Assembly (NCBI GenBank): GCA_919903025.1
Contig: CAKKSE010000024.1
Coordinates: forward strand, 3,175-67,174
Direction of reading: 5' to 3'
DNA from: Nitrospiria bacterium
Lineage (GTDB): Bacteria; Nitrospirota; RBG-16-64-22
DNA length: 64,000 bases
Below, in pieces: positions 2,900 through 44,040 of this stretch. The stretch's first letter is position 1. Each line of letters starts with the position of its first letter. A program made the translations under genes and the position numbers. The notes under the pieces were generated by a model that was not told the origin of the DNA, ran no database searches, and saw only the letters and a list, made by a program, of their open reading frames with translations.

Positions 2900-4013
2900 C
2901 CCGGTAGAGTGCGAGAGTCTCCCGCGCCGCCCGGTCCCACGAAAACGTCCGGCTCCGGAGAATTCCTTCCCGGCGAAGCGTCGACTGGAGCGATGGATCG
3001 GACACGACGGCGAGGATACCGCTCGCGATAGATTCCTCGTCGTACGGATCGACGAGGACGGCCGCCCGGCCGGCGACCTCCGGCATGGAGGAGATGTTCG
3101 ACGTGACCACCGGCGTCCCGCACGCCATCGCCTCCAGAACCGGAAGGCCGAACCCTTCGTAGATCGAAGGGAAAACAAAGCAGGACGCCCCCGCGTAGAT
3201 GGCCGCCATTTCGTCCCTCGGCACGTACCCCAGGAACCGGATGGCGTTCGCCGAGACGGCGTTCGCCGTCCTGAAGATCTCGTCGTACAGCCACCCCTTC
3301 TTTCCCGCGATGACGAGGGAGAGGTCTGCACCACCCGGCATCCGCTTGACCCGGTCGAACGCCCGGATCACGCGGGGCAGATTTTTCTTGGGCTCCAGGT
3401 TGCCGACGTGTAGAAGGTACCGGCCGTTAATATTATACCGATTCAGCACGGATTCAACCCGTTCCGGCCCGGGCGGCCCGAATTCCGGACCGGCCGCCTC
3501 GGGAATCACCACGATCCGGGAAGAGTCCACGCCGAGGATGTTCATCAGGTCCAACCGGGTGCATTCCGAAACGGCAATGATCCGGTCGGCGCGCCTGACG
3601 GCCATCCGGACGAGCCATTTCATATAGAGAGAGTACCGCCGGGGAACGGTTTCCGGATGGAGAAAGACCACCAGGTCGTGTACCGTCACCACCGTCCGGA
3701 ACGTCGGGGAACGGAACGGGATCAGGAAGGCCGGCCCGTGGAAGATGTCCGCCCCGGCCTTCCTCAAGCGATAGGGAAGGACCGCGTGTTCCCAGAAATC
3801 GCCGAAAAGGTGGTTCTCGTGAGAAAAGGGCGTCCGGATAAGGTCCACGCTCTTGCCGGGGAGAAGCTGGCCCCGGCATTGGGCCTGGTTGCAGACGTAC
3901 GAATAGCGGTTCTCCTTGTCGATCTCGCGCAGAGAACCAAGGAGGTTCGAGACGTAGAATCCCACGCCCGAGTGCGTCGGGTTGATCGTCCGGACGTCAA
4001 TCGCGATGTGCAT
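2877..4013 (-). CDS. GT4-family glycosyltransferase (mannosyltransferase-like)
   Basis: MHIAIDVRT...; C-terminal FVFPSIYEGFGLPVLEAMACGTPVVTSN (E-X7-E-like GT4 signature). ATG at 4013; a TTG at 4025 is the alternative start. Confidence 0.8.
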   Translation of the reverse strand: MHIAIDVRTINPTHSGVGFYVSNLLGSLREIDKENRYSYVCNQAQCRGQLLPGKSVDLIRTPFSHENHLFGDFWEHAVLPYRLRKAGADIFHGPAFLIPFRSPTFRTVVTVHDLVVFLHPETVPRRYSLYMKWLVRMAVRRADRIIAVSECTRLDLMNILGVDSSRIVVIPEAAGPEFGPPGPERVESVLNRYNINGRYLLHVGNLEPKKNLPRVIRAFDRVKRMPGGADLSLVIAGKKGWLYDEIFRTANAVSANAIRFLGYVPRDEMAAIYAGASCFVFPSIYEGFGLPVLEAMACGTPVVTSNISSMPEVAGRAAVLVDPYDEESIASGILAVVSDPSLQSTLRREGILRSRTFSWDRAARETLALYRDVYNERH

Positions 4014-5149
4014 GGTCCCGTCCAAGGCACTCGCCCAGAAATGCGGCCGTCTGGGCGGCCCACACCGGCCAGGCGTAACTCTTCTCGGCCCGCTCCCGCC
4101 CTCGCGCGCTCATTCTTGCCCGCCTTGATGGGTCCGCCAGGAGATCGGCGACTGTCCGCGCGAGCGCGCGGACATCCCCCTCCGGGAACACGGCCCCGGC
4201 GTCACCCAGAACCTCCGGAATGGCTCCCGAAGAGGACCCCAAGACCGGAACACCCGAGGCCATCGCCTCGACAAGCACCCGGCCGAACTGCTCTTTCCAG
4301 GTCGGCGTTGTGCGAGAGGGGAGCACGAGGAGATCCATTCCTCGATATGCCTCGGGAATCGACTTCTTCGGAATGTTTCGGATCCATTCCACCCGCCCTC
4401 TCGACAGCCTCCACCCCGCCGCCTCGCCTGCCAGGGGACCGTCTCCCACGATCCGTAAGACGACGGGAAATCGCAGTTCCTCGACTGCCCGTCGGAGATC
4501 CTCGATCCCCTTCTCGCGGACCAGCCGGCCGACATAGCCGATCACGGGCGGATCCGGCAGCTTCTCCCGCGCGGGAACAAACGCGAACCGCCCGACGTCC
4601 GATCCCCAGGGAATATGAGCAATCGGTCCGGCAAACCCGCGGCCGCGCAGAACGCCGACGGCCTCATGGTTCCGCGCCGCCGCGCCCGCGGCGAATGAGA
4701 ATACCTCCCGCTCCAGCCGGGTGTCCAGCCGGTAGAGCCAATGCCACGGCTGAGGATAGCAGGCATCCGACATCGGGACGTTCTGCCATGTATGGAACAC
4801 CAATCGCGGGCGGGGCCTGAGGCGGCGCGCCATGCGATCGACCTGTGTCGTCAGCCAGAAGTTTTCGTCCGTAAGAACGTGGATGACGTCCGGAACCGGA
4901 TCCAACGCCTCCTTCAGCCTCGAAAGAAACACGACCCTGTTCGGCGACTTCCCCGCGAGACGGCCGACGACAGTTCGATAACCTTCATCCACGTCTCTCG
5001 CCCCGGCCCGGCGAACCCAGCTCCCTTCTCGAAAAGCATGCGGGCGGAGAAGCGTCAGATCCACGCCGGAAACGGCCGCCAAGGCCCGCGCTTTCCCACG
5101 CTCGTCTTCCGAAACCGAATTGAGATCTATGAGGAGAATCTTCAGGATG
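3997..5149 (-). CDS. GT4-family glycosyltransferase; start codon uncertain
   Basis: ILKILLIDLNSVSEDERGKARALAAVSGVD... LVLPSRTTPTWKEQFGRVLVEAMASGVPVLGSSSGAIPEV. The conserved N-terminus begins right after the flippase TGA (5142-5144). No ATG/GTG/TTG is available there, only ATC/CTG/ATT, unless a roughly 225-nt overlap is accepted. Confidence 0.65.
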
Positions 5150-6545
5150 TCTCTCGGATCCGGCCGAGACGGGCGATGAGATTCTTCCGGGAGTAGTGCA
5201 CGACGGCCGCGGCGAATGGAATGCTCGCCGCGAGAGCCCCCCAGAGAGTCCACCCGATGATAGATACTACAATCACACCGGGAATAAAGGCAGCCGGACC
5301 CATCCACCAGTCTGCCGGCATCGAGCGCCCTGCTTCGGCTCGGATGAAGACCGAGAACACCAACCACCGAACCACCTCGGCCGCAACGAGCACCAACGCG
5401 AGATCGACGGGGGAACGGACCAGCAGGATCCCTCCGACGACGACTCCCGCTCCTGCCGCCTGGGCGAGGACGGCGTTCCCCTGCCGCCCCACGGCCCCCA
5501 GCGCCTGCGACGCCGTGTGATTGAGGAAGAACGCCGGAGATCCCAAAGCAAGGGTCATGAGCACGGGGCCAGCGCCCCGGTAGCCCGCCCCAAACAGAAG
5601 ACCGACCAAGGGGTCCGACAGAACGGCCAGGACAAACCCCGCCCAGATTCCGACCAGCAGAAGGAGACCGTTCCCTTGATGGAACCAGCGCCAGGTCTCA
5701 GACGGCGACGGCCCAACCTTCGCCGCCATGTGCGGGAACGCAACCGAACCGACTGCCCCCGGGATCACGCCCAAGGCGAGAAAGAGCTTCGAGGCCGCTT
5801 GAAATTCCCCGGCGGCCGACAGACCCATCCCGAGGGAAACAGCGACGGTAGGGAGGTTCAACGGAACGGCGCCAAGAACGTTTCCGGCCGCGAAGGGAAT
5901 CCCCTCTCGCAGGACTTGCCCCAAAGCACCCCCTGGCCCAACCGCCGCCCCGGCATGGGTATGCCGGCGGACGCGCATGCCCATCCAACCGGCGTACAGG
6001 AGTCCGACGGCAATCGAGCCGTATAGAAGAACGGGAACGGACGTAACCCCGGCCGCAAGGAAGGCGGCAAGAACCGCAAGGTTCACAGCCCGATACGCGA
6101 CGAGGAAAGCCGACCTCTCCCCGAAGCGCTGAATACCGGCTAGAACCGCCGCGTATGTCTCGCCGATCGAGAAGAGGCCCAGACTCCCGACCGCCAAGGC
6201 CGACGCGATCGGCAGGTCGGGATGGTCGGCCCAGATCGAAATTGTTCCGCCGACGATCCCCGCACACGCAACGATCAGAATCCCTTTCAGTAGGACAACC
6301 TTCGAGAGCCACAGGCGGACCATCGAGGGGTCTTGAGCGGAGCGGCGCGTCACGACCGGTCCAAGCCCCATTTCCAGCACGTATTCGAGCAACCCCGCGG
6401 TTGAAAGAGCCGTTGCGTACAGCCCGAACCCTTCCGACCCAAGCCCCCTCGCCAGGACCAGAACGAGGACGAAGTTCACCACCCGTTCCGCCGCAAGAGC
6501 CGTCCCGATCGCCTGCACTTGTAAGAGAAACCTAGAGAGGCTCAC
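5142..6545 (-). CDS. Wzx-like polysaccharide flippase (MOP/MATE-like exporter superfamily)
   Basis: 467 aa, roughly 12-14 predicted TM helices, polysaccharide-biosynthesis-protein-like N-terminus (VVNFVLVLVLARGLGSEGFGLYATALS). Positioned between glycosyltransferase genes. Confidence 0.75.
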   Translation of the reverse strand: MSLSRFLLQVQAIGTALAAERVVNFVLVLVLARGLGSEGFGLYATALSTAGLLEYVLEMGLGPVVTRRSAQDPSMVRLWLSKVVLLKGILIVACAGIVGGTISIWADHPDLPIASALAVGSLGLFSIGETYAAVLAGIQRFGERSAFLVAYRAVNLAVLAAFLAAGVTSVPVLLYGSIAVGLLYAGWMGMRVRRHTHAGAAVGPGGALGQVLREGIPFAAGNVLGAVPLNLPTVAVSLGMGLSAAGEFQAASKLFLALGVIPGAVGSVAFPHMAAKVGPSPSETWRWFHQGNGLLLLVGIWAGFVLAVLSDPLVGLLFGAGYRGAGPVLMTLALGSPAFFLNHTASQALGAVGRQGNAVLAQAAGAGVVVGGILLVRSPVDLALVLVAAEVVRWLVFSVFIRAEAGRSMPADWWMGPAAFIPGVIVVSIIGWTLWGALAASIPFAAAVVHYSRKNLIARLGRIRETS

Positions 6546-7728
6546 CCGCGGCTTCCTCGTAAACCCGAACCGTCATCTCCGCCGCACGCCGCCAGTCGAA
6601 AAAGGCAATTCGTTCCTTTCCTCTCGCCAACAGGAGTCCCCTCAGACCCACTTCAGACGCCAATCGTCCCAGCGCGTCCACAATCGGCCCCTCTTCCGGC
6701 TCGACGAGAAGCGCCGCGTCCCCCGCGACCTCCGGAATCGCCCCTCGATTGGACGCCACCACTGGCGCTCCAGCGGCCATCGCCTCGAGAACGGGGAGCC
6801 CGAATCCTTCGAAGAGCGATGGTTCCACAAGAGCCCACGCCCCCGCATAGAGGGCCGAAAGGTCGGCATCCGGCACGTACCCGAGGAACCGGACATTCTT
6901 CTCCACACCCGCAGCCCGGACGGCCCCCGCCAGCGAAGGGAACTCGGGCTCCTTCTCTATCCGCCCGGCGAAAACGAGGTCGAGGTCTAGCCCGCCGGCT
7001 CGCGCGCGCCTGAGGACCTCCGGAAGGAGATTGACGTTCTTCCGCCGGTCGATCCCGCCGACGTGCAGAAGATAGGAACGCATCAGCCCGTTCGTGGCCT
7101 TCAACCTCTCGACATCGAATCGCGCGGGCTCGTCGAACCGATCCACGCCGTTCGGGATGACGGTGATCTTTGCCGGTGAGACGCCCAGCGTCCCCACCAG
7201 ATCCTTCTTCGTCGCTTCCGAGACGGCAATGATCCTGTCTGCCTTCTCGAGAACGCGCACGTTCAGCGCCGTGCCGAAACGCGACCGCAGGTTGCGGATC
7301 GGGTTCCAGCCGGCGTATTCCTTCCGGAAGACGACGGGTATGATGTCGTGCGCCGTGACGACAAGCCGGGTCCCGCCGAGCCGGCCGAGGGGGGCGTCCG
7401 TGTGGGAAAGGAAGTGTGCGACCCGAACGTCCAGAACCCTGACGGCGGATGACAGTCCGGCCAAGCGGAAGGCCGTCTCCCGGCCCGCGGGAACCCTCTC
7501 AATCCAGCGCGGCCACAGGAGGAATTCGACTGGGACCGATTCGCCGTCCAGATCGGGCTCCGGGCCAGGAGACGCGAAGAACTTGATCCGGCCCTTCGGA
7601 ACGATATCCGCGAGAGCCCGAACGAGGCCGCGGGCGTGACGCCCGATCCCGCGTTCAAGATGCGCCTTGTAGCCGGCCTGCAGAGGCCGCAGATCGACGG
7701 CGACAAGCGGTCCCTTTGAGCCCCTCAT
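6532..7728 (-). CDS. GT4-family glycosyltransferase
   Basis: LVEPSLFEGFGLPVLEAMAAGAPVVASNRGAIPEVAGDAALLVEP; ATGA overlap with the downstream gene at 7725-7728. Confidence 0.85.
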   Translation of the reverse strand: MRGSKGPLVAVDLRPLQAGYKAHLERGIGRHARGLVRALADIVPKGRIKFFASPGPEPDLDGESVPVEFLLWPRWIERVPAGRETAFRLAGLSSAVRVLDVRVAHFLSHTDAPLGRLGGTRLVVTAHDIIPVVFRKEYAGWNPIRNLRSRFGTALNVRVLEKADRIIAVSEATKKDLVGTLGVSPAKITVIPNGVDRFDEPARFDVERLKATNGLMRSYLLHVGGIDRRKNVNLLPEVLRRARAGGLDLDLVFAGRIEKEPEFPSLAGAVRAAGVEKNVRFLGYVPDADLSALYAGAWALVEPSLFEGFGLPVLEAMAAGAPVVASNRGAIPEVAGDAALLVEPEEGPIVDALGRLASEVGLRGLLLARGKERIAFFDWRRAAEMTVRVYEEAAGEPL

Positions 7729-8765
7729 CCGATCGGTCTGCCCCCTTCCGCCGTCTCCCCGGCGGAACCGCCTCCGTCGAAGCCGGCGATCTCCTTGACC
7801 ACATAGATCGCCTTCTTCTGAGACTCGTGGTAGGTTCTCGAGATCATCTCGGCCAGGAGACCGATCGTCACGAACTGAAATCCCGTCGTCACAAGGAGAA
7901 CGGCAAAGAGCAGGAGCGGGCGATTCGCAATCGATTCCAGGAACACCAGCCGCATGATCGAGAGATAGATCCCCGTTCCGGCTCCGATCCCGAGCGAAAT
8001 CAGGCCGATCAGGCCGAAGATCTGGATCGGCCGCGTCGCATACGAAAGCAGGAACTTGACCGTTAGAAGGTCAAGGATGACCCGGACAGTCCGGGACAGG
8101 CCGTACTTCGATCGGCCGGCCGTCCTGGGACGGTGGTTGACGGGAAGCTCAGCCACGGATACACCGATCCACGAAGCGATCGCGGGAATGAACCGATGCA
8201 TTTCGCCGTACAACCGGATCTGCCGGATCACATCGCCCCGAAAGATCTTGAGAGAACAGCCGTAGTCGTGCAGGCGGACTCCCGTGATGAGAGAGATCAA
8301 GCCGTTCGCAATCCGGGATGGAATACGCCGCGTGAGCCATGGATCTTTCCGATGGACTCTCCAGCCGCTTACGATGTCGTAGCCTTCCTGTAGTTTGTCG
8401 AGAAGCCTGGGAATATCAGCCGGATCGTTCTGCCGGTCGCCGTCCATCGTCACGATCAGATCGCCCCGGGCATAATCGAACCCTGCCGACAATGCAGCCG
8501 TCTGGCCAAAGTTCTTCCGGAGGCGGACAACAACCAGCGCCGGATCGGATCGCGTGCGTTCCTTGAGCCGGTCGGCGGTTCCGTCCGTAGATCCGTCATC
8601 GACAAACACGGCCTCGTATCTCAAGCCGGTACGCCGAAGGACGTCGTGGATCTCGTCCAGGAGACGTTCTACGTTCTCAGCCTCATTGAAGACCGGAACA
8701 ATTACCGAGAGGTTCGGCCGATCGGGTGGTCCCGGTGTCTGAATCGTCGACTCCCAAGCACTCAC
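7725..8765 (-). CDS. GT2 polyprenyl-phosphate glycosyltransferase (GtrB/ArnC/DPM1-like) with C-terminal TM helices
   Basis: LSVIVPVFNEAENV, VFVDDGSTDGT, DGDRQNDP (DXD region). C-terminal hydrophobic segments (IQIFGLIGLISLGIGAGTGIYL, LLLFAVLLVTTGFQFVTIGLL) typical of Und-P-sugar synthases. Confidence 0.85.
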   Translation of the reverse strand: MSAWESTIQTPGPPDRPNLSVIVPVFNEAENVERLLDEIHDVLRRTGLRYEAVFVDDGSTDGTADRLKERTRSDPALVVVRLRKNFGQTAALSAGFDYARGDLIVTMDGDRQNDPADIPRLLDKLQEGYDIVSGWRVHRKDPWLTRRIPSRIANGLISLITGVRLHDYGCSLKIFRGDVIRQIRLYGEMHRFIPAIASWIGVSVAELPVNHRPRTAGRSKYGLSRTVRVILDLLTVKFLLSYATRPIQIFGLIGLISLGIGAGTGIYLSIMRLVFLESIANRPLLLFAVLLVTTGFQFVTIGLLAEMISRTYHESQKKAIYVVKEIAGFDGGGSAGETAEGGRPIG

Positions 8766-8774
8766 GGTCTTCTC

Positions 8775-9466
8775 CTATTTCTTACAGCTCGCCACGCAAT
8801 AGAGGCTGAGGTCCAACGGCACAAACGCTGGAAACCAGCGGATTGAGACTTCCGCAAACGAGCGCCGTAGCGCCGCAAGAATGTCCGTGTGGCTCGACGG
8901 ATGTCGTTCGTCAACCGTGGTCGAGAGATTCATTCCAAGCATTCCTATGGCGGCGGTCGTGAGAATGTTCTTCACCGGGAAACCGATGACGGCGCGGCCG
9001 CTGCTTTTCAGCACCCGGCTGACTTCTCCGGCCGCGCTCCCAACTTCCTTGATGTGCTCCAGAACGCTCACGCTCACGAGAGTGTCAAACGAACCCGTGA
9101 CAAAAGGAATCTCAAGGGCCGATCCCTGAACCAGGAACGCAGACACCCCCGACGATTCCAGAAGCCGTCGAACGTCTTGGACTTTCTCGTGCACGTCAAC
9201 CCCGTAGACCGAGTCTGCAAGCCGGCTCACTGAAGGCAGCAATACCCCGCTTCCGAATCCCACATCCAGCAGGCGCCCGACGCGCGACGACATCAGTTCC
9301 GCTACCACCATCTCAAAGCGCTTCACGTAGAAATATCGCACCCCCGGGATGTAATAGAATTTCAGCGGATCGGCCTCGTCCGTCTCGACAAGGAATTTCC
9401 GCTCCGGAATCTCGACAGTCGTCGATTTCAACTTTGACTCCCTGGCGGCTCCCCGAAGGAACCACA
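8775..9466 (-). CDS. Class I SAM-dependent methyltransferase
   Basis: ORF 8775..9686 trimmed to MWFLRGAAR... (ATG 9466, preceded by GGGAGAGGG). Motif I LLDVGFGSGVL; LVSVSVLEHI. Confidence 0.7.
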
Positions 9467-9519
9467 TCCCTCTCCCGCCGCCGGATACCAACGGCAAGGA
9501 CCCCCCATTTCGCCGGTTC

Positions 9520-11589
9520 CTAAGTTCGCCCGACGCTCTCCGGGCGAACCCGCTTCGGCCCGAAAATTCGCAATTCCGCGATCGACCAATCGTAGGTGCC
9601 GTGATGTCCCAAGTTCTCGATCCGGACGTACCGCGCGCTTCTCGGTTGAAAACGCAGTTGGACGCCCCCCTCCCGGCCAAAAACAAATCTTCCCTCGCTC
9701 CAACCTACGAATGGGAAAACGTTCCGCGCTCGGACGATTGTCTCCCAGCGAATGCCGTCCGGCGAAACGTGAATCGCGACCCCCCGCGGGAAATCCTGGA
9801 CGTAGCCGCCGACAAGAAGATCCGCGCCGGCGATCTCCCGGCCTGGCGGAAGTTCCAGAGCGATTTCCATACCCGGCCGTTGCGGTCTTCCGGATCCCCA
9901 CCGCGTCCCCAGGTTCCCGTCCGTCATGTTGCCGAGCTGGACGGAGTTATGCGTGGCCGTGAGTCCTCGCCACTCGGCGGGGGGAACGAACTCCCCTCTT
10001 GCAACCGTCTCCCTCAGTCCGTGAAAAACCACATACTGCCCGAAGGAATGGCTCCGAGTATACCCGATCCCCGCTGCGCCCAGCGTCTCGGCAAAGGAAG
10101 CCGCCGACCCACGGTCCACGATGACAGCCGGATGGGATGAGTTCCGGACCTCCCGCAGATGCCCCTCGTAGCGGACTGGAAACCCGCCGTAATCAAACGG
10201 TTGGGAGCAGATCACCGATTCGCCGCTCTCAAAGGAAAGCCGCGTGCTCAGCCAGTAGTCCGCGTAACACTCCTTGATCCCATGGGCCGCAAAATAATCC
10301 CGAACACCTGAAAGATCCCACGTCTGCCAAGGAACAGCGCTCCCTCTGGGGGACCAGACCGCCATCACGTTCGCCACGTTGACATACGCGTTCGCCGATA
10401 TCGCAAGAAAGAACACCGCGCCCGCCAGAAGCCGGACCCGGCGCCGCAGGGCAGTCACCACGAGAGCCGTGCACACCGGAAACGCCGAGTAGAGCGGCAG
10501 GAGGTACCGTTCGGTTTCAATGCCGGCGCCCGACGCCGCGTAGCGGCGGAACGGAGTCAATGTGAATACGAGAAGCACCGAAAAGATCAGGAGCCCGAGA
10601 ACCAACGCGCCGTCCGAAGAGCCTGCCCACTCCCTCCCTTTCCGGAAGAACGCCGCTGCGGCCAGAATGAAGACGAACCCCAGCGACCCCGCGTTAAGCA
10701 GAATCAGAAGTGCCGCCATCCCGACCGGAAGAGACACTCCGTCCAGATGGTAGCCTGTCGGAATATCGAACGGGGGGACACCCCACATCGGCGGAAGCTG
10801 ATCCACCACGAGACGGCGGGCGCTGTCCAGAACCATCCAGACATCAGGAAGCCCAAAGTCCATCCGCATCGTCGAGGCGAGTTTCCCGGCGGCAAACGAG
10901 CCGCCGCCCGTCGCCAGATTGTATCCCAAAAACGGAAGTGCCCCGACGATAAATCCGCAGGCCGCGAAACCGAGTCCCCGCCCGTCCCGCCAACGATTCG
11001 TCAAGCCCAGAATGCCGGCCGGGATCAGGTAGTCAACGAACAGGAAGTTCGTCCACCAACCCAACCCTCCGACGAACCCGAGCACGACAAAGCGCGTCAG
11101 CCGGACCGACGGACGCCCCTCCCTCCCTGCCGCCAGGAAGACCGCCAAGAAGAGCGTGCCCAGAATGAGCGTTTCGACGTACCCTCCACGGGCCGTGTTT
11201 CCCCAAACAATGAGAAACACCGGCGCGACCAACGTCAGGGCCGCAGCCAGCCTCCCGACGCCCGGATCCCCCACACGGGTCCCCAATTGGTAAACCGCCC
11301 ATACAAGAACGCCCGACAGCGCCATTGGAACGATCTTGACCAACCATGGGCTGTTTGCCGTGAACCAAGAAATGGGCGCAATCAAAAACGCCTCAAGACT
11401 CCCGAGATAGGTCTGCCCCCAATAGAAGACGGGGAACTCTCCCAGCAAGATGTGCCCCGCCATCAGGCCGACCGTCGCTTCGTCGGCGTGGGTCATCCCT
11501 CCCACGGGCCAGATCCACGCCATGCGAAGGGCCGCGCCCGTCAGGACGAGAACCGCGAAGAAACCGGGAAATCCCCAGATCCCACTCAC
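9520..11589 (-). CDS. GT-C-fold membrane glycosyltransferase-like protein (PMT/GT39-like N-domain) with C-terminal F5/8 type C (discoidin) domain, paralog A
   Basis: HADEATVGLMAGHILLGEFPVFYWGQTYLGS (DE loop motif) plus at least 10 TM helices. C-terminus: DGNLGTRWGSGRPQRPGMEIALEL...FPRGVAIHVSPDGIRWETIV...RYVRIENLGHHGTYDWSIAELRIFG. GTG at 11589 overlaps the TGA of the upstream gene (GTGA). Confidence 0.75.
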   Translation of the reverse strand: MSGIWGFPGFFAVLVLTGAALRMAWIWPVGGMTHADEATVGLMAGHILLGEFPVFYWGQTYLGSLEAFLIAPISWFTANSPWLVKIVPMALSGVLVWAVYQLGTRVGDPGVGRLAAALTLVAPVFLIVWGNTARGGYVETLILGTLFLAVFLAAGREGRPSVRLTRFVVLGFVGGLGWWTNFLFVDYLIPAGILGLTNRWRDGRGLGFAACGFIVGALPFLGYNLATGGGSFAAGKLASTMRMDFGLPDVWMVLDSARRLVVDQLPPMWGVPPFDIPTGYHLDGVSLPVGMAALLILLNAGSLGFVFILAAAAFFRKGREWAGSSDGALVLGLLIFSVLLVFTLTPFRRYAASGAGIETERYLLPLYSAFPVCTALVVTALRRRVRLLAGAVFFLAISANAYVNVANVMAVWSPRGSAVPWQTWDLSGVRDYFAAHGIKECYADYWLSTRLSFESGESVICSQPFDYGGFPVRYEGHLREVRNSSHPAVIVDRGSAASFAETLGAAGIGYTRSHSFGQYVVFHGLRETVARGEFVPPAEWRGLTATHNSVQLGNMTDGNLGTRWGSGRPQRPGMEIALELPPGREIAGADLLVGGYVQDFPRGVAIHVSPDGIRWETIVRARNVFPFVGWSEGRFVFGREGGVQLRFQPRSARYVRIENLGHHGTYDWSIAELRIFGPKRVRPESVGRT

Positions 11590-13673
11590 GGAACGACCTT
11601 GACTCCGACCGCCCGGCTGTCGCCGAACCACGCGACACCTTCTTTCACCAACCGCCACTCGGTCGCGTAGTATCCCGGCCTATTCGGAGCCGTGTACGTG
11701 ATGCGGATCGATCGAGTATCGCCGGAACGGACAACGCTCCCATCGGGCAGCGGGATTCGCCGCGGACCGAGCGGATTCGAATCGGTCGCGGCGCCCAGAA
11801 AGATCCCACCCGATGTGGACCACTCCTCACGCCCGGTGTTCCTCACGCGAATCCATGCCTCCGCCGAAGATCCCGCCTTCATCTCGGACGGAAACTCTCC
11901 TTGCACAATGGCCGCGTCCAACACGCCCCCCCGATCCTTCCGAAGCTTGTTGAAAATCCCCTTGTCGTCTGGATTCATGCTGAACATATAGAAGTCCGAC
12001 TGCCAGAGACGCAGGACCCGGATGAGGTGGGCCTTTTCCATCCATGTTGGAAACTTCTGCCAATACCAGGAAACCTCCCCGTTATAGACCGCGAGGACCA
12101 TATGCGAGATCGGGTACCGGCCGAAAGGATCGTCGAAATTGAACCAGGGCTCCCACGCATACAAGGTTTTCGCCCGGTTCTCCAGGCAGAGCGCGGGCGC
12201 CGCGAGACCCGCGACTGTTCCTTCGCCCACGACGCCGGCGAGCTCGCGGGAAGTCTGAACCATTGTATACTGCCGGCCCTTGGCCCAGACAGCATACTGG
12301 CGCCCGTCGATGAGAACCGAGGCCACGAGCAGGATCCCGACGGCCGCCGGCCGCCAGATCCTCGTCCATTCCATCTTCGGCCGCCGAGACAAGTTGATCA
12401 GGATGAACACGAGACCCGCCGCCAGGACAGCGGCAAGCGCCCATTGGATCCACCGCGGTCCCAAAGACCCGATCCTCCATCCCACGACCACGGGAACAAG
12501 CACCATGTAGCGAATTGCCACGGCCGCCCAGAGCCAGCCGATGATCCAAGCCAGGAAAGCCCAGGAGCGGGCCGCGCTTCCTTCGGGATCGGCGGCGCGT
12601 GTCGCCAGTGCTCGTCCCGCCATCAGGGCAACCGCGGGAATCAACGGCACGTAGTACCGGTCCGGCCGGTAACTAAGGACCCCGAGTCCCAGAACTCCCG
12701 CGGCCAGCCAAAGGACAACGAGCCATTCCGCCGCATCGAACCGCCGCCACCGGGCGAGGGTCGCCGCAACGACCGCGCCGGCTCCGGCGAACCCCGTCGC
12801 GAGCGCGACGGGCGACCGCAGAAAATATGAGAAGAACGGGTTGTCGTGCAGGTTGTTGAACAACTGAGCGGCCGACCTTGGCATGCTGACCCTTTTCCAG
12901 GCCTCCCCGATCCGGAGAATGTCCTCCCGGTTTGGGGAAAAGAACAGCAAGTACCACAAACCCATCACGACCGCCATCCCCAAGAAAACCGCCGCCATTC
13001 CCTGGACGGCCCGACGGCGGTCCGCGCCCCGCGCCATCAGAACGTCCACGATCAGGACCGCCGTAAACGCGGCGACAAAGTACAGGGCCAGTGACTTGCT
13101 CACGTACACGCATGCGCCGCTGACTCCCGCCGCGACGGAATACATCCAGTGCTTGTTCCGCCCGCGGTTCCAAAGAAACGCCGTCAGCACCATTAGGAAC
13201 GTGTAAGGCGTCTCCAGGAGCCCCAGACGGCTGTACATGACCGCGTAGAAGCTTGTCCCCAGGAAGAGCGCCGAATACAGGCCCGCTTCCCGGCTCCACG
13301 CCTCGGACGCAAACCGATAGATCAGAAAGACGGAAGCCGACCCCAGTACAATCGGAATCAGCCGCTCCTGGAGAAACCCAACGCCAAGCAGATGAAAAAC
13401 GAGGACCTGGACGAAATGGAGAAGCGGACTGTAGTAGTAGCTGTTGAACTCGTCCAGCCGCCACTGGCCGAACAGAACGGTGTTGCGGGCGTTGTGGACC
13501 AGCGCCCCTTCGTCGAAGAAGAGCCCACCGCTTCCGCTCAAATGCGCCGGAGGGTCGGCATAGGGGAAAAGAACGCGAAGGAGAACGGAAACCAGAAGGA
13601 CCGCGCCGATGCCTATACCGTGGAGCAAGCTAAGCGCCTTTCCCGCATTCGCTCCCCACTTCGGCGACGGCAT
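11586..13673 (-). CDS. GT-C-fold (PMT/ArnT-like) membrane glycosyltransferase with C-terminal NBR1-like Ig domain
   Basis: LFFDEGALVHNARN (FDE motif), many TM helices. C-terminus: AWIRVRNTGREEWS...YTAPNRPGYYATEWRLVKEGVAWFGDSRAVGVKVV. Start is ATG 13673 (44-nt overlap) or a TTG immediately after the upstream TAG. Confidence 0.7.
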   Translation of the reverse strand: MPSPKWGANAGKALSLLHGIGIGAVLLVSVLLRVLFPYADPPAHLSGSGGLFFDEGALVHNARNTVLFGQWRLDEFNSYYYSPLLHFVQVLVFHLLGVGFLQERLIPIVLGSASVFLIYRFASEAWSREAGLYSALFLGTSFYAVMYSRLGLLETPYTFLMVLTAFLWNRGRNKHWMYSVAAGVSGACVYVSKSLALYFVAAFTAVLIVDVLMARGADRRRAVQGMAAVFLGMAVVMGLWYLLFFSPNREDILRIGEAWKRVSMPRSAAQLFNNLHDNPFFSYFLRSPVALATGFAGAGAVVAATLARWRRFDAAEWLVVLWLAAGVLGLGVLSYRPDRYYVPLIPAVALMAGRALATRAADPEGSAARSWAFLAWIIGWLWAAVAIRYMVLVPVVVGWRIGSLGPRWIQWALAAVLAAGLVFILINLSRRPKMEWTRIWRPAAVGILLVASVLIDGRQYAVWAKGRQYTMVQTSRELAGVVGEGTVAGLAAPALCLENRAKTLYAWEPWFNFDDPFGRYPISHMVLAVYNGEVSWYWQKFPTWMEKAHLIRVLRLWQSDFYMFSMNPDDKGIFNKLRKDRGGVLDAAIVQGEFPSEMKAGSSAEAWIRVRNTGREEWSTSGGIFLGAATDSNPLGPRRIPLPDGSVVRSGDTRSIRITYTAPNRPGYYATEWRLVKEGVAWFGDSRAVGVKVVP

Positions 13674-14739
13674 CTTCCGTCTTCTCGGTTCTTGCCGGAG
13701 AGGGTCTGAAGATGAGGTTCCCGAGGATCGTCTGATACGCCTCGCAGGGAGTCCAACACTGAGCGCAGTGTCCTTTCTCGATGTTCTCCCGGACCCTCAC
13801 AACGTGCGGCAGATTCCAAATGCGCCGGAGGTCGTAGTCGTGGTCCCGCAGATTGGCGAGAGGAAGATTGTCCATGCTGCACGGGTACACAACACCGGTC
13901 GGATCGATGAAGCACGAGGCGGACAAGGCTTTGCAGGGCATGGGCGTCCTTCCAGTCGCGAGGAACCCTCCGATCCGTGATTGATAGACCCGCTCCACGA
14001 AGGCAACCGGATGCAGACGGCGCCGCCGGTGCGCCCGGTACCAGTGGAGCGATTCCTCTATGTCCCGCTGGGACAAACTGGCCATCCCCGTGTTCTCATA
14101 ATAGTGCTCGGACTGGTGCGCGACATTGACGTGAAGCTCATCCGCGGTAATGTTCGGAATCCGGCCGCGGACAGCCTCCAGCGTCTCTTGAATCTTGTCG
14201 AAGTTCCTGGGAGTCAATGTCATGCCGAGGTATGCCTCGAACCGGCCAGATCTCATTTCGCGCAGCCGCGCAAACGTCCGAACCGATTTCTCCCAACTTC
14301 CCTTCACCCCCCGCAGGTGCTCGTGGACCGCCTCGTCTCCGTCCAGACTTACGGTGACGATCAGTTTCTTCGGGTGTCTCGCCAGGATCTGTTCCACCCC
14401 GTCCACGATCAGGTCGGTCATGACCCCGTTTGTCGGGAAATCCAGGACGTACAGCGCTTTGCATCGGTCCATGATGACGTCGACGATGCGTGTGAAGTCC
14501 CCCCGAAGGAAGACCTCGCCACCGCTCAGGTTGATCCAGGAGAAATCGGCGTTCCGGCTGAAGAAGCGGTCGTATTCCTCAAGAGACAACTCATCCCGCG
14601 CTTCCCGCTGCCAGATATTGCACATCTGGCAGCGCAGGTTGCACCGGTACGTCAAGATCAGCGTAAGCTTATAGGGAAAGGCAAGCCGCCGGACGTTCGA
14701 CGCCAGGATCGCCGTTGCCAGCTTAAGCGTTTTGCGCAC
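13630..14739 (-). CDS. Radical SAM protein with SPASM domain #1
   Basis: CNLRCQMC (CX3CX2C) near the N-terminus; C-terminal Cys cluster CKALSASCFIDPTGVVYPCSMD...CAQCWTPCEAY. Confidence 0.8.
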   Translation of the reverse strand: MRKTLKLATAILASNVRRLAFPYKLTLILTYRCNLRCQMCNIWQREARDELSLEEYDRFFSRNADFSWINLSGGEVFLRGDFTRIVDVIMDRCKALYVLDFPTNGVMTDLIVDGVEQILARHPKKLIVTVSLDGDEAVHEHLRGVKGSWEKSVRTFARLREMRSGRFEAYLGMTLTPRNFDKIQETLEAVRGRIPNITADELHVNVAHQSEHYYENTGMASLSQRDIEESLHWYRAHRRRRLHPVAFVERVYQSRIGGFLATGRTPMPCKALSASCFIDPTGVVYPCSMDNLPLANLRDHDYDLRRIWNLPHVVRVRENIEKGHCAQCWTPCEAYQTILGNLIFRPSPARTEKTEDAVAEVGSECGKGA

Positions 14740-15934
14740 CAGCGTACTCCGTGTTCTTCCCCCGGTCGGGTGTCTGCGCGAACATGCGCACCACCTCCCG
14801 CATGACCTCGTCGACCGTGATGCGCTTCATGCAAACCGGGTCGTTGCAGTTGCTGCTCTTCGCGTTGAAGTTCGTGATGCACGGACTGCACGGAAGAGCC
14901 TTGTAAAAAACGTGGCAGGGACCCAACCGGGGCCCATACAAAACCGGCGTATTGGGTCCGTAGAAACCCATGCAAGGAGTTCCCATCGCAGCCGCCAGGT
15001 GAATCGGGGCCGTATCGTTCGAGAGAAAGATCGCGCAACGCCTCATCAGGGCCGCAAGCTGGGAAAGCGTCAGGGTTCCGCTCGCGTCAACGGCTGATCC
15101 AGCGGGCATGCGGCCCAGCGCATCCGCGATCAGCCCCCGTTCTGCGGGCGTCCCCGTGAAAACGATCCGGGCGCCGTACTCCCGATGGAGCCTCGCTCCC
15201 ACCTCCGCGAACCGATCGATCGGCCACCTCCGTTGGGGAAAGTTCTCTCCGGACCCGGGATGAATCCCCACGATCGGATCTCCCTCCCCCACTCCGCAAT
15301 CCGCCAGAAACTGTTGCACTCGCTCATCATCCCCCGGAGCGAGATGCATCGGAACGGCGGCCGCGTCCCGGCAATCCACGCCGATCATCCGCGCCACGTC
15401 ATTGAAAGTATGGTACGAGTGCTGGTGGTCGTTGTATGGAATCCGGTGCGTATAGACGAACCCCCGGCCCTGGCCCGCCGTATCCAGGCCGGCTCTCCTG
15501 CGGCCGCCGCTCAACCACGCCAGAAGCGCGGTCGTCCTCGAGAATTGGTCGAAATCCAGGACCCAGTCGAAGGACAGCCCCCGAATCCGGCGAATCGTCC
15601 GCACCGAGCTCGCGAAGAACCGCAACACCCCGGACACGTCGAGGTAGACGGCCTCGTCAACGTCCGGATTCCTGTCGAGAGCCCCCCGGTTGGGGGAAAG
15701 CGTCAGGAACACGATCCGGGCACTTGGATACCTCTCGCGGATGCCGCGGACTACCGGCTGAAGGATGATCAGGTTCCCAATTCCCCACGACTTGATGAGG
15801 AGGATTCGTTCGATCTCGCGCTCGTCCCCGGACCAGACGATCCTGGACCACAGCCGGCCCGCGGTCCCAAGGAGGAAGCAGAGCGGAATCCCGACGAAGT
15901 AGTCGAGCTTCTTCATGAACCACAGCCGGATCAT
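14723..15934 (-). CDS. GT9-family glycosyltransferase (heptosyltransferase-like) #3
   Basis: ILLIKSWGIGNLIILQP; AIFLSNDTAPIHLAAAMGTPCMGFYGPNTP; C-terminal CSPCITNFNAKSSNCNDPVC. Confidence 0.8.
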   Translation of the reverse strand: MIRLWFMKKLDYFVGIPLCFLLGTAGRLWSRIVWSGDEREIERILLIKSWGIGNLIILQPVVRGIRERYPSARIVFLTLSPNRGALDRNPDVDEAVYLDVSGVLRFFASSVRTIRRIRGLSFDWVLDFDQFSRTTALLAWLSGGRRRAGLDTAGQGRGFVYTHRIPYNDHQHSYHTFNDVARMIGVDCRDAAAVPMHLAPGDDERVQQFLADCGVGEGDPIVGIHPGSGENFPQRRWPIDRFAEVGARLHREYGARIVFTGTPAERGLIADALGRMPAGSAVDASGTLTLSQLAALMRRCAIFLSNDTAPIHLAAAMGTPCMGFYGPNTPVLYGPRLGPCHVFYKALPCSPCITNFNAKSSNCNDPVCMKRITVDEVMREVVRMFAQTPDRGKNTEYAGAQNA

Positions 15935-16000: not shown

Positions 16001-17545
16001 CTAGATCGCCACTTTCCGCGAGAGGCTAAGCTCGTCCGATCCTCGGCCCGTTGCCCTCCTCTTCGCGCCGATGCCGACCAACCCGCCCGCCTTGAATCTG
16101 ATGAGAGTGAGGAAGAGAATGAAATATCGCCAGACGTCTCCGAAGGACCGGATGCTTCCCAATACTTTCGGAATCTTCCGCGTCCATCGGATCGACTTCT
16201 TGGCGACCGAAAAGCGGACCATGATCTCGCACAGTTGTCCCCATGTCAACCGGTCCAAATAGAGCGGCGCGTGCCCCTGCGCGGCCGGAAGGACGATGGC
16301 CCGGCGGTCGTTCTCGATCGACCAGGAGAAATCCTTCGGGATATTACCCTCCGCCCGCGCGCGCTCCTCCAGCGGGGTCCCCGGGTAGACGTGGAGGATC
16401 GCGACGCTCGTTTCGCACTTACCCTCCAGATCCTCGATGATCGACATCGTCTCCCTGGCCTCGTTCCAAGTTTCCGTAGGGTGGCTGAAGATGAAGAAGG
16501 GATTGGCGTTGACGCCGAACTCTCCGCACCATTCGATCACGTCGTAGGCCTGGCCCAGCGTGGCTTTCTTTGTGATTATGTCGCGGCAGATTCGCTCCGA
16601 TCCGGACTCGATCCCGAATCCGACGTGGTAGAGCCCCGCCTCCACCATCTTGGCAAACAGAGACTTGTTCAGAATATCAACGCGGACCTCGCAAAACCAC
16701 TTGATTCCAAGCCGCCGCTCGATGATGAGATCGCAGATGGCGGCGGTCCGCGCCCGGCTGAAGTTGAACGTGTCGTCGTAGAACCAGATGACGCGGCTCC
16801 CATACCGGTCCGCGAGGTGTTCGACCTCCGCCACGACCTTCTCCGGGCTGAGAGACCGGACTTTCGTTCCCCAGTTCGACGGTGTCGCGCAGAACTTGCA
16901 CGTAAACGGGCACCCGCGGCTCGTCATCATGTTTCCGGCTGGAAGGAGACCGTGCCCCGGAACTTCCATGCTAAAATTGTACCGCCCCCATGGCTCCAGG
17001 TGCCGGGCGGGAAGGGGAAGGCTGTTCAGGTCGGCGATGAGGGGGCGCGGGGAGTTCTCCTGAATCGTTCCATCCGGCCGCCGGAAGGAAAGGCCGGCGA
17101 CCCGGCCGAGATCGCCCACCGCTCCGAGACAGCGGACGAGATCCCGCATCGTCTCCTCCCCCTCCCCCGAGATCACGGCATCCACCGCCGGAACGTGCGC
17201 CAAGGTATCGCGCGCCGTGTTCTTGAGATGAGGTCCGCCAAGGACGGTCAGGGCCGGCGGAAACGCCGCCTTGGCGGTTTCCGCCACCCTGAAGCTCAGG
17301 AACCTGTTCTCCGTCGTCGTGGTGATTCCTACCACGTCGGGGCGGTCCGTTTCGATCTTCCGGGCCAGCTCTTGCCACGAAAGGTCCAGGACGTGAGAGG
17401 GAACGATCTCTACATCAATGCCGTCCGTCTCCAGAACGGCCGCGATATACTGAATCCCCAGAGCGGGCATCATCGATCCGCCCGACCAACGCTCCGCGAA
17501 GTACCCCCCGGGGGGAACAATAAGCATGACCCTCGGAATCTTCAC
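16001..17545 (-). CDS. B12-binding (class B) radical SAM enzyme
   Basis: N-terminal B12-binding-like Rossmann region (MLIVPPGG...GITTTTEN...VLGGPHL) followed by TSRGCPFTCKFC (CX3CX2C). 514 aa. GTG start at 17545 after AGGAG. Confidence 0.8.
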   Translation of the reverse strand: MKIPRVMLIVPPGGYFAERWSGGSMMPALGIQYIAAVLETDGIDVEIVPSHVLDLSWQELARKIETDRPDVVGITTTTENRFLSFRVAETAKAAFPPALTVLGGPHLKNTARDTLAHVPAVDAVISGEGEETMRDLVRCLGAVGDLGRVAGLSFRRPDGTIQENSPRPLIADLNSLPLPARHLEPWGRYNFSMEVPGHGLLPAGNMMTSRGCPFTCKFCATPSNWGTKVRSLSPEKVVAEVEHLADRYGSRVIWFYDDTFNFSRARTAAICDLIIERRLGIKWFCEVRVDILNKSLFAKMVEAGLYHVGFGIESGSERICRDIITKKATLGQAYDVIEWCGEFGVNANPFFIFSHPTETWNEARETMSIIEDLEGKCETSVAILHVYPGTPLEERARAEGNIPKDFSWSIENDRRAIVLPAAQGHAPLYLDRLTWGQLCEIMVRFSVAKKSIRWTRKIPKVLGSIRSFGDVWRYFILFLTLIRFKAGGLVGIGAKRRATGRGSDELSLSRKVAI

Positions 17546-17560
17546 GGAACGCTCCTAGGC

Positions 17561-17602
17561 AATCAAATAGAAAGACCCCGAGTTGGCAGATACCTCGGGG
17601 TC
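17561..17602 (-). terminator. Rho-independent terminator/attenuator hairpin between the lipoprotein gene and the B12-rSAM gene
   Basis: GACCCCGAG (17574-17582), an 11-nt loop, then CTCGGGGTC (17594-17602). On the minus strand this is followed by TTTCTATTTGATT. Confidence 0.5.
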
Positions 17603-17696
17603 TCTCCTGCCCAGACTGCTGGGCCTAATCAGAATAGAGCCACGATCAGGTTGGCGCAACCGCTGTCACGAATAACCGAGTTGATCCTCTTCGGCT

Positions 17697-18326
17697 CTAC
17701 AGTGCGCTTCCCGGACAGCCTTTTGGCCGGCACGATGCGACATTCCTTCCGTCGCAGACAGCCGTTGCCACCGGGTTGCACGCGGAATCTCTGCACCGAT
17801 CGCACGGAACCCCCGGATTGCAGGCGTCGTCCAACCCGACGGTGCAGTCCCAACCCCTCTCCCCTTTCTTGCCGCCGCCACCCCCGCTCGTACCGGGCTT
17901 CGAGAGGCCAATTCTGTTCCGCATGACTCCGCCGGATGACGCCGTGAACTGTTCCGCAGCCGTATCGTATCCCGATTTGCTCACCGCGATGGTGTGGGTT
18001 CCCGGATCAACGACTACCTCGTAGTACCCGTTGCTGTTTGTCGTCGTTGTCACGGGGTCGCTGGTCACGGTCACCGTCGCACCCGCGATCCCCGCCGAGG
18101 GAGACCCCTCATAGACGGTTCCATACAGAACGAACTTCCCGGCAACCGCTGGCGGAGCCGATGCGTCGGACGTATTGCTGCTCGTGGCTGTTGTGCCCGT
18201 GGGGCTGTTGCTTTCTTGCACATCCACTTTCCCGCAACCTTCAACCAGTACCAGCAGAATCAACGCCAGAAGAACCAGCGTTTTCCCCAAAACGCCTTCC
18301 CGTAATCCTTTGGTGCCGGAAGCCAT
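17697..18326 (-). CDS. Secreted/lipoprotein with carboxypeptidase-regulatory-like beta domain and Cys-rich C-terminus
   Basis: MASGTKGLREGVLGKTLVLLALILLVLVEGCGK signal. GTVYEGSPSAGIAGATVTVTSD...NSNGYYEV (CarboxypepD_reg-like). C-terminal 48 aa contain 8 Cys, including a repeated ACNP. Confidence 0.6.
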   Translation of the reverse strand: MASGTKGLREGVLGKTLVLLALILLVLVEGCGKVDVQESNSPTGTTATSSNTSDASAPPAVAGKFVLYGTVYEGSPSAGIAGATVTVTSDPVTTTTNSNGYYEVVVDPGTHTIAVSKSGYDTAAEQFTASSGGVMRNRIGLSKPGTSGGGGGKKGERGWDCTVGLDDACNPGVPCDRCRDSACNPVATAVCDGRNVASCRPKGCPGSAL

Positions 18327-18365
18327 ATCCCTACCCCCCAAATGTGGGCCGAATTTTCGTAATGG

Positions 18366-18395
18366 ATATTCGCATCACGACGGGCCAGAAGTCAA
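18366..18395 (-). promoter_or_regulatory. Candidate sigma70-like promoter for the minus-strand lipoprotein gene
   Basis: On the minus strand TTGACT-N18-GAATAT sits within an AT-richer islet upstream of the ATG at 18326. Confidence 0.25.
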
Positions 18396-18592
18396 TAAAT
18401 TTCTTGGCATTTTTGCCCCTCCGGTTATTCCATCCATCAGCGGTCGCGTCGGCTCCTCGGCCACACGCTCCAATCCAACCCCGAACATCTCAGGCGGGTT
18501 CGGATCTGGCACGGTCCTCCAAACCGGGCACCCTGACCGGAAACGGGTTCAAGGCAAAGACCCCGCCTATCGAGTCAAACACAGAAAGTCCT

Positions 18593-18622: not shown

Positions 18623-18684
18623 GGACAACCCTTTTCGATTAGCATCCTCGTCCACGACTTGCAAACAATTGGAGGATCTCTATC

Positions 18685-19170
18685 ATGCACCACGCTTCCC
18701 GCACTCTTGCGTCCCTTGCGCTGGCATCCCTCGTCGCTCTCTTTGGCTGCAATAAATCCGAGAACAGTCCGACATCGGACACAGCGTCTGACAGTTCAAG
18801 TTCCACAACAACGGGAGCAACCTACACGAGCGTCGAGAACTGCAAAGGAACGGAGTTCGACACGAGTGTCGGCGGCACGGAGCTTTACGACACCCATGTT
18901 TTCGCCTACAACGGACCCTACATTCGCCTCAAGCTCACGGGCATCGGCGGCACGCCTCGAATTCAAATCCTTAACGCCGATTTCACATCCACGAAGCTTT
19001 CCTCGGCCCAAGTCGAAGAGGAACTGAAAACGAGGCTCGTGTGGGAAAAACGAGTGAGCAGCAGCGGGGACATCTACCCGAAGGGCGTCGCACCCGGAAC
19101 GTACTACATCAACCTCTACGAGGGAGCCGGGGCCGTTTTCATTTACGACTGCTCTGGTCCGGCAACCTAG
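18685..19170 (+). CDS. Putative lipoprotein, unknown function
   Basis: MHHASRTLASLALASLVALFGCNK (signal plus lipobox-like LFGC). Strong SD TTGGAGG 10 nt upstream. Ser/Thr-rich linker followed by a roughly 110-aa domain. Confidence 0.65.
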   Translation: MHHASRTLASLALASLVALFGCNKSENSPTSDTASDSSSSTTTGATYTSVENCKGTEFDTSVGGTELYDTHVFAYNGPYIRLKLTGIGGTPRIQILNADFTSTKLSSAQVEEELKTRLVWEKRVSSSGDIYPKGVAPGTYYINLYEGAGAVFIYDCSGPAT

Positions 19171-19186: not shown

Positions 19187-19229
19187 CAAGCCCGGACAGG
19201 CAGCGAACACTGCCGGCCCGTCCGGGCTT
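19187..19229. terminator. Bidirectional terminator hairpin between convergent genes
   Basis: AAGCCCGGAC (19188-19197) pairs with GTCCGGGCTT (19220-19229). It lies between the TAG at 19170 and the minus-gene stop at 19243. Confidence 0.45.
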
Positions 19230-19242
19230 GCATTTCCAGCGG

Positions 19243-44030: not shown

Positions 44031-44040
44031 GCGACGTCTC

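Follow-up and report, generated by a model that had tools for sequence, protein, structure and literature searches.

The 64-kb stretch of DNA analyzed here (the window) comes from a Nitrospirota metagenome-assembled genome, and Pfam and further domain annotation showed that the whole of it is a minus-strand envelope-glycan island. Within this island we analyzed a gene pair that a model reading the bare sequence (the sequence-only reading) had singled out. A probable lipoprotein of 209 aa with a Cys-rich C-terminus (17697..18326, minus strand) is followed, 151 nt downstream, by a 514-aa radical S-adenosylmethionine (SAM) enzyme with a B12-binding domain (16001..17545, minus strand), the first gene of a tightly packed operon. 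Between the two lies an intrinsic-terminator-like hairpin (17564..17607, minus strand). Open reading frames (ORFs) and Pfam matches confirmed the gene pair, as well as the four radical SAM genes that had been counted in the window: the B12-type gene and three of the SPASM type, at 13630-14739, 22921-23973 and 35898-37013. The lipoprotein ORF is real as well, but its start had been placed at 18341, where the mechanical ORF begins with TTG, whereas all homologs begin at the ATG at 18326.

The hairpin consists of a 14-bp stem with 8 G-C pairs spanning 17607-17569 (17607-17594 paired with 17582-17569) and an 11-nt loop (17593-17583), and has a folding energy of -26 kcal/mol. Its core, GACCCCGAG/CTCGGGGTC, occupies 17602-17574 (17602-17594 paired with 17582-17574), a U-rich tract covers 17573-17564, and the tail after the hairpin reads UUUCUAUUUG. 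The hairpin was absent from an automatic terminator scan solely owing to its loop of more than 8 nt. In a re-scan that allowed loops of 3-12 nt, neither strand of the window had a longer terminator-like stem, and 30 dinucleotide shuffles gave a mean of 0.07 such stems per window (stem of at least 14 bp, at least 6 G-C pairs and a T-tract). It is also kept in two other lineages (three relatives), L006 (Nitrospirae RBG_16_64_22), whose radical SAM protein is 92% identical, and L001/L002, where it is 90% identical. Across the three lineages the stem energy is -26 to -29 kcal/mol, with loops of differing sequence and length and a divergent flanking spacer. This conservation is a stronger argument than the shuffle statistics that the hairpin is not a product of chance. 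The strong hairpin with a T-tract that the sequence-only reading had described is therefore present, rare by chance and conserved. Its closeness to the radical SAM gene held up too, but not the distance of 5 nt to the Shine-Dalgarno sequence: the AGGAG of the ribosome-binding site (RBS) is separated by 8 nt from the end of the U-tract and by 17 nt from that of the core stem (17574).

The radical SAM gene has its RBS (AGGAG, 17556-17552) and GTG start codon (17545-17543) in a block (17543..17556, minus strand) that is conserved in both L001 and L006. Two findings support the GTG start: an in-frame TAG at 17557-17555 closes the frame upstream, and downstream of the GTG every difference from L001 is synonymous. 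The hairpin shows the marks of an intrinsic terminator, namely a G+C-rich stem-loop followed by a U-tract, an intergenic position 3' of a stop codon and a conserved structure; its 11-nt loop is longer than is typical for such terminators.

Transcription of the lipoprotein genes and the radical SAM operon

The Cys-tail lipoprotein gene is preceded by a putative promoter (18366..18414, minus strand) made up of an A-rich UP-like block (18414-18400), a -35 element TTGACT (18395-18390) and a -10 element GAATAT (18371-18366), with an 18-nt spacer ending in TGC (extended -10). In an alignment with L001 and L003, this block was the best conserved part of the 358-nt divergent intergenic region. Our promoter scan, which covers sigma-70-type sites only, passed over it because the -10 element matches at only 3 of 6 positions. 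Across the intergenic region, and oriented divergently, lies the gene of a second lipoprotein (18685..19170, plus strand; 161 aa, with the lipobox LFGC and a Ser/Thr-rich linker). No other gene of the region is on the plus strand. This second lipoprotein, which is 86% identical in L001, has a putative promoter of its own (TTGACC, 18 nt, TATAAG) at ~18600-18640 on the plus strand. The two sigma-70-like promoters, each with an extended -10 (TGn), stand back to back, one per lipoprotein gene, and are conserved in L001 and L003.

The second lipoprotein gene converges on a methyltransferase gene (19243-20148, minus strand), and a strong hairpin between the two (19187..19230) is a probable bidirectional terminator, with a z-score of -4.1 and folding energies of -30 to -34 kcal/mol for the two strands. 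The stem, but not the loop, is conserved in L001. A microRNA family match on this hairpin (E = 0.26), the sole Rfam match at E<=1, was discarded as chance. Because the two lipoprotein genes have promoters of their own, hairpins at both outer ends and packed genes downstream, we regard them as a self-contained cassette bracketed by predicted terminators.

Headed by the radical SAM gene, an operon of ~13.5 kb runs from 17545 to 3997, its genes tightly spaced with intergenic gaps of -226 to +66 nt. The rest of this operon (3997..15934, minus strand), annotated with Pfam and kept in the same order in L001 and L006, encodes a GT9 protein, a SPASM radical SAM protein, two GT-C-like membrane proteins (one with PMT_2 and an Ig-like domain, the other with F5/8 type C), a methyltransferase, a GT2, a GT4, a Wzx-like flippase and a further GT4. 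The promoter scan gave no promoter-like site at 17696-17546. Scanning and manual reading likewise found no promoter between the hairpin and the radical SAM gene, where the best hexamers have a 14-nt spacer.

These features can be put together as follows. The two back-to-back lipoprotein genes would be separate transcription units, each started by a sigma-70-type promoter and closed on the outer side by a terminator hairpin. For the Cys-tail lipoprotein gene, the Rho-independent terminator would be the hairpin at 17607-17564, and the upstream operon would be stopped at ~19.2 kb by the second terminator. The operon from 17545 to ~3997 would be fed by partial read-through from the lipoprotein promoter past a leaky terminator. 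Lipoprotein transcripts would then be abundant and enzyme transcripts scarce, and the hairpin would work as a constitutive intercistronic attenuator rather than a sensing switch. Because the upstream operon appears closed, a lipoprotein promoter is present, only 8 nt separate the U-tract from the RBS and no promoter was detected at 17696-17546, we infer that read-through is the most likely supply of the radical SAM operon.

A known partial intercistronic attenuator of this kind lies between rplL and rpoB in the rplKAJL-rpoBC operon of E. coli. As in that case, a G+C-rich stem and a U-tract stand between a promoter-bearing gene for a structural protein and enzyme genes with too little space in front of them for a promoter, and in the window the stem is conserved and the loop variable. 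Unlike the rplL-rpoB attenuator, the hairpin described here is known from sequence alone, has an 11-nt loop and an interrupted U-tract, and belongs to an uncultivated Nitrospirota host. A terminator placed after a lipoprotein gene and before an enzyme operon would be a standard way to obtain more structural protein than enzymes.

Several observations at the hairpin weigh against a terminator that simply leaks. Its U-tract is interrupted, as seen in the tail given above. Its distance to the RBS and GTG of the radical SAM gene is fixed, whereas the lipoprotein stop codon lies 89 nt away here and ~260 nt away in L001 (~170 nt more); such spacing would also suit a leader. Moreover, a weak candidate promoter matching at 7 of 12 positions (TTGCGC, 17 nt, TATTCT) lies upstream of the hairpin at 17659-17631, both in the window and in L006, and could turn the hairpin into an element of a 5'-untranslated region; this candidate is not conserved in L001. 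The spacing and the candidate promoter favor a regulated attenuator or riboswitch-like leader that would answer cobalamin, SAM or envelope stress. Its transcription would start at the lipoprotein promoter or at one within the 89-nt spacer. The minimum-free-energy fold, which lengthens the stem towards the RBS, can be read in the same way. However, Rfam gave no family at the gathering threshold and nothing on the 17.6-kb hairpin at E<=1. In a search for an antiterminator or aptamer, the three-lineage consensus fold backed the terminator helix alone, although three sequences give low power; in the other helices pairs were broken and covariation was not convincing. Conservation in L001 does not extend to the spacer upstream of the hairpin, and the locus has no leader peptide or protein-binding repeat. 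We therefore consider a regulated leader quite improbable. The sequence-only reading had proposed a conditional terminator tuning radical SAM expression. The conserved terminator anatomy and the lack of room for a promoter agree with a terminator that tunes the operon, but nothing indicates conditional control, for which neither an Rfam match nor a conserved alternative pairing was found.

The hairpin might also be an efficient terminator, or a stabilizer of the mRNA 3' end, and nothing else, with the radical SAM operon either silent or transcribed from an unrecognized non-sigma-70 promoter. The strong stem in all three lineages and the restriction of our scans to sigma-70-type sites speak for this possibility. 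On the other hand, with 8 nt between the U-tract and the RBS, such a promoter could only overlap the hairpin or lie ahead of it, and the operon is intact and conserved in three lineages, which argues for its expression. We give this alternative as little weight as the regulated leader and retain the leaky, constitutive terminator as the favored reading of the hairpin.

The Cys-rich tail and the radical SAM genes

The product of the upstream gene (Pfam PF13620 and PF13715) consists of a signal peptide ending in LVEG-Cys31-Gly, a Ser/Thr-rich linker (residues 32-63), a CarboxypepD_reg beta-sandwich (Pfam match at residues 67-137, sandwich at ~64-143), a Gly-rich linker and a tail with 8 Cys. Only four full-length homologs were found among 5.8 billion proteins, all in close relatives with the same gene order; in these, Gly30-Cys31-Gly, the ATG start and all 8 tail Cys are invariant. 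The signal peptide has an n-region and an h-region, and its lipobox, which carries Glu at position -2 (Val, Asp or Gly in the homologs), was missed by the PROSITE-like rule that we applied ([LVI][ASTVI][GAS]C within ~35 residues). The order of parts resembles that of PF13620 lipoproteins with Ser/Thr tethers in having a signal peptide, an invariant Cys-Gly, a low-complexity tether and a single PF13620 domain. It differs from them in the residue at -2, which is Glu, Asp, Val or Gly in this family, and in the 8-Cys module, which has no detectable relatives. We also noticed that residues 41-142 (17898-18137) give a weak match, of 30.5 bits against a cut-off of 1400, to the anammox Kustd1514 S-layer glycoprotein family; the match covers the CarboxypepD_reg-type domain only.

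The tail (residues 160-209; 17700..17849, minus strand) is an orphan mini-domain with 8 Cys at positions 161-204 in the spacing C-x7-C-x5-C-x2-C-x4-C-x7-C-x7-C-x4-C. The sequence-only reading had placed 8 Cys in the last 48 residues; the number is right, but the span is the last 49, the last 48 containing 7. It had also pointed to ACNP occurring twice, which is true of the window, but the first copy is GCAS or GCAP in relatives, so the tail has no conserved repeat. The tail is the most conserved segment of the protein, with 96-98% identity to P0002 and P0003 vs. 48-82% elsewhere. A profile of the four tails searched against 1.84 billion representative proteins returned only the tails' own cluster and two spurious repeat proteins. 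Two other candidate homologs were set aside. P0005, which appeared to lack the tail, came from an error-rich contig with fragmented genes and is not a natural variant, and P0006 has only the CarboxypepD_reg domain in common. The contig behind the truncated P0005 (L005, ENA contig_5740) carries the same locus with fragmented, frameshifted genes and looks error-rich. A C-terminal sorting signal was rejected from the sequence, as no hydrophobic helix or basic tail follows the tail motif. Given the signal peptide, the even number of invariant Cys, the highest conservation and the absence of a sorting helix, the tail is probably a small exported, extracytoplasmic orphan module stabilized by four disulfides. 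The disulfide-rich surface domain that the sequence-only reading had offered as a second possibility thus fits the extracytoplasmic anatomy, with the disulfide state itself a prediction.

The first possibility offered there was that one of the four radical SAM enzymes acts on the tail as its substrate. In this scenario, a SPASM or B12-type enzyme would add thioether or other crosslinks to the tail in the cytoplasm before export. Having 8 Cys in 49 residues beside radical SAM genes, four of which lie in the island, makes this conceivable. Modification of exported proteins ahead of their secretion is known for SPASM enzymes (anSME, QhpD), and SPASM crosslinking of Cys-rich peptides and proteins is known from sactipeptides, from ranthipeptides such as SCIFF/CteB and from QhpD-QhpC. 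Like these systems, the window has a Cys-dense stretch of ~50 residues encoded near SPASM radical SAM genes. Unlike them, it shows no co-conservation and no leader peptide, and has a terminator and a separate promoter between the genes; its Cys stretch is the C-terminus of a signal-peptide protein, and its enzymes offer little room for a peptide-recognition domain.

Co-occurrence was examined at 91 loci with orthologs of the B12-type radical SAM gene (51-92% identity), the neighbors of which were clustered de novo. The sequence-only reading had held that a lack of co-occurrence of the lipoprotein with radical SAM genes in related genomes would refute the substrate idea. The lipoprotein was present at one of the 91 loci, L086, which is of the same lineage as L006, and no credible Cys-rich ORF was found within 4 kb at the other loci. 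It was also missing from the 14 loci that carry homologs of the SPASM protein encoded at 22921-23973 (SPASM_22921), and in distant genomes the B12-type enzyme and the SPASM_22921 homolog are kept together without the lipoprotein or any Cys-rich ORF. Across the 91 loci there was no co-occurrence of the kind expected of a substrate and its maturase, whether of the type seen in ribosomally synthesized and post-translationally modified peptides (RiPP-type) or of the QhpD type.

The proteins themselves point in the same direction. In the three SPASM proteins the radical SAM domain begins at residue 28, 34 or 62, and the 27-61 residues before the core seem too short for an N-terminal peptide-recognition (RRE) domain, for which no model was searched; nor did a systematic search cover stand-alone RRE genes, and an RRE is absent from some SPASM enzymes that modify proteins. 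What would be modified is a 209-aa protein with a signal peptide and a folded domain and not a leader-plus-core peptide. The lipoprotein and its tail are confined to one small clade, outside which the tail has no relatives, and the terminator and separate promoter uncouple the gene from the enzymes. Because the tail is clade-restricted, does not co-occur with the enzymes and faces enzymes with little room for a peptide-recognition domain, the substrate reading is unsupported, fails the refutation test that the sequence-only reading had set for it and is, in our estimate, extremely improbable. Nothing links the Cys-rich tail to the radical SAM enzymes.

The same comparison showed what does accompany the radical SAM gene. 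At 42 of the 91 loci, smc lies directly upstream (e.g., L159 2026-5520), with a median gap of 5.5 nt, and at 35 a gene for a Na+/solute symporter lies directly downstream (e.g., L144 11785-13284). In L084 and L085 the radical SAM gene comes after a PPK2, a histidine phosphatase, a PPK1 and a CHAD-domain gene. A compact conserved module at 10-14 loci contains genes for a hexapeptide acyltransferase, the B12-type radical SAM enzyme, a methyltransferase, a GT4 and a SPASM radical SAM protein; the window has homologs of all five parts in dispersed positions, at 21690-22541, 16001-17545, 26138-27205, 24987-26150 and 22921-23973, respectively. In distant genomes (L010-L014) the module sits between housekeeping genes (mutS and murJ in L012, where it spans 8938-14704), and its methyltransferase, of class I, is possibly fused to the GT4. 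This module could steer the search for the substrate of the enzyme.

The B12-type radical SAM enzyme and a joint model

The radical SAM protein matches the B12-binding domain PF02310 at residues 24-136 (73.2 bits) and Radical_SAM PF04055 at residues 208-368 (79.9 bits). Its cluster motif CPFTCKFC (C212-x3-C216-x2-C219) is invariant in 44 orthologs. We found 1,462 homologs at E<1e-30, and homologs 50-70% identical occur across Nitrospirota, Rokubacteria, Zixibacteria, KSB3, Aminicenantes, Acidobacteriota, Nitrospinota and others. The protein scored below the curated cut-off of every NCBIfam equivalog, so that it could not be assigned to any of the named B12-type families (ApyD, BchE, HpnJ, PhpK, HpnR, the ladderane-lipid radical SAM enzymes and others); its best scores were 175 bits against a cut-off of 750 for ApyD, 151 against 481 for BchE and 148 against 578 for HpnJ. 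A literature search found no paper on this family or on the arrangement of lipoprotein, hairpin and radical SAM gene. The enzyme therefore belongs to a large, widespread and uncharacterized family, and a family so large and so strongly conserved has no assigned function.

An AlphaFold2 model of the protein (predicted local distance difference test score, pLDDT, of 88) confirmed the class B fold, with B12-binding and radical SAM domains. The closest solved structure, both by sequence search and by fold (TM-score 0.68/0.76, 22% identity), was AprD4, followed in Foldseek by TsrM, OxsB, CysS, MgmA (PDB entry 9ccb) and TokK. The protein shares with these enzymes an N-terminal Rossmann B12-binding domain, a radical SAM TIM-barrel and the CxxxCxxC motif, with Foldseek TM-scores of 0.58-0.68, and differs from them in being only 16-24% identical and in having its own conserved C-terminal helix (468-491). 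AprD4, which serves apramycin biosynthesis as a sugar 1,2-diol dehydratase, has the same domain layout and binds no cobalamin (PMC12931638). Because the nearest match binds no cobalamin, neither methyl transfer nor cobalamin use can be assumed for the enzyme in the window, and the label of a gene typical of C-methylating chemistry, which it had been given from the sequence, is unproven. The long C-terminal helix at residues 468-491 is hydrophobic and basic and is followed by a disordered basic tail (residues ~468-514 together, 16001-16140); it is present in L012 too, is family-specific, and could be a membrane-association element. In the setting of the island, a sugar or a lipid-linked glycan intermediate is the most plausible substrate.

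Taken together, these data favor, with some reserve, a joint model in which the hairpin terminates the lipoprotein transcript, the radical SAM operon is fed by read-through, the tail is a disulfide module and not a substrate, and the enzyme acts on a glycan-type compound. The anatomy, the conservation and the lack of co-occurrence described above are observed; read-through, termination efficiency and transcription start sites were all deduced from the sequence, which counts against the model, and the disulfides and the enzyme's substrate are likewise predictions. Other points to be set against it concern its individual parts. Glu at position -2 of the lipobox (LVEGC) is non-canonical and makes lipidation uncertain, with cleavage by signal peptidase I after VEG as the alternative. 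In the AlphaFold2 model of the lipoprotein, built from an alignment of four sequences, the beta-sandwich reached a pLDDT of 62-80 and the tail only 43-54, which is uninformative about the disulfides. The contexts of the radical SAM gene elsewhere, such as smc and the polyphosphate kinase genes, are not glycan-related and warn against a firm call of the substrate.

A further difficulty comes from the sister clade, made up of six Rokubacteria-type loci (L007, L008, L009, L083, L087 and L088) whose radical SAM proteins are 69-71% identical. There, too, a lipoprotein gene and a terminator lie 5' of the radical SAM gene, in the order asparagine synthase, lipoprotein of ~200 aa (lipobox IGGC or SGGC; 9272-9960 in L083), strong conserved terminator and radical SAM gene. 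The terminator, GGACCACGCATCGCC...GGTGCGTGGTCC plus a T-tract, lies ~85 nt before the radical SAM gene and is unlike the window hairpin in sequence. Homology between the Nitrospirota and the Rokubacteria-type lipoproteins was rejected, the match being in the signal peptide alone (hhalign probability 29%). In L090 (64% identical) asparagine synthase adjoins the radical SAM gene without a lipoprotein, and none of the other orthologous loci has an adjacent lipoprotein with a convincing signal peptide. As a background density, a sample of 1.1 Mb contained 0.59 ORFs with a lipobox per 10 kb. The joint model leaves this recurrence unexplained. Two independent insertions of a lipoprotein gene plus a terminator at the same place may be chance. 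Because the two most closely related clades each have a different lipoprotein and a strong terminator directly upstream, one may also suppose that the radical SAM family has a conserved role in envelope biogenesis that touches lipoproteins, and that the enzyme in the window or a SPASM partner acts on the Cys tail or the anchor before secretion. We consider it unlikely that the recurrence hints at such a link between the enzyme family and the envelope, and the specific role just described very improbable. We keep to the joint model and regard the arrangement as ordinary; what modest interest the locus holds lies in the uncharacterized radical SAM family and the glycosylation island, not in the juxtaposition.

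The envelope-glycan island

Large polytopic GT-C-like proteins number at least eight in the island; four of them have PMT_2 matches, and six end in F5/8 type C (lectin-like) domains, several in tandem. Also encoded are several glycosyltransferases of the GT4, GT2 and GT9 types, numerous SAM methyltransferases, a hexapeptide acyltransferase, a DegT aminotransferase, an NAD-dependent epimerase and a Wzx-type flippase. The concentration of GT-C and lectin-like proteins suggests an elaborate system of protein or envelope glycosylation in Nitrospirota. The unusual number of GT-C membrane glycosyltransferases with lectin-like domains is one by-product of this analysis that is of some value.

These proteins raise the possibility that the Ser/Thr linkers of both lipoproteins are O-glycosylated by the PMT_2-type GT-C enzymes of the island, which would be compatible with the terminator model. 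Glycosylation and not radical chemistry would then tie the lipoproteins to the island, as acceptors encoded among the enzymes that modify them. Ser and Thr make up 11 of 32 and 16 of 30 residues in the two linkers that follow the lipoboxes. In addition, the Kustd1514 S-layer protein of anammox bacteria, whose family the CarboxypepD_reg part weakly matches, is heavily O-glycosylated (PMC5088730); that paper contains no gene-cluster information on S-layer glycosylation. The argument is purely inferential, however: Ser/Thr-rich tethers are common in lipoproteins, PMT_2-type enzymes glycosylate lipids too, and the joint retention of the genes in close relatives is trivial synteny. We therefore regard O-glycosylation of the linkers as possible but unlikely.

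GT-C-like membrane proteins are unusually dense at 9520-13673, 28287-34756 and 40942-54417. The island additionally encodes a 1151-aa protein with PMT_2 and TPR domains, a 1005-aa protein without a Pfam match and a YfhO protein. A 241-aa protein (20114-20839, minus strand) has a signal-peptide-like N-terminus and several C-terminal Cys, without family matches. Finally, a 150-aa lipoprotein with a canonical LAGC lipobox is encoded at 22472-22924 (minus strand), between the SPASM_22921 gene and an acetyltransferase gene.

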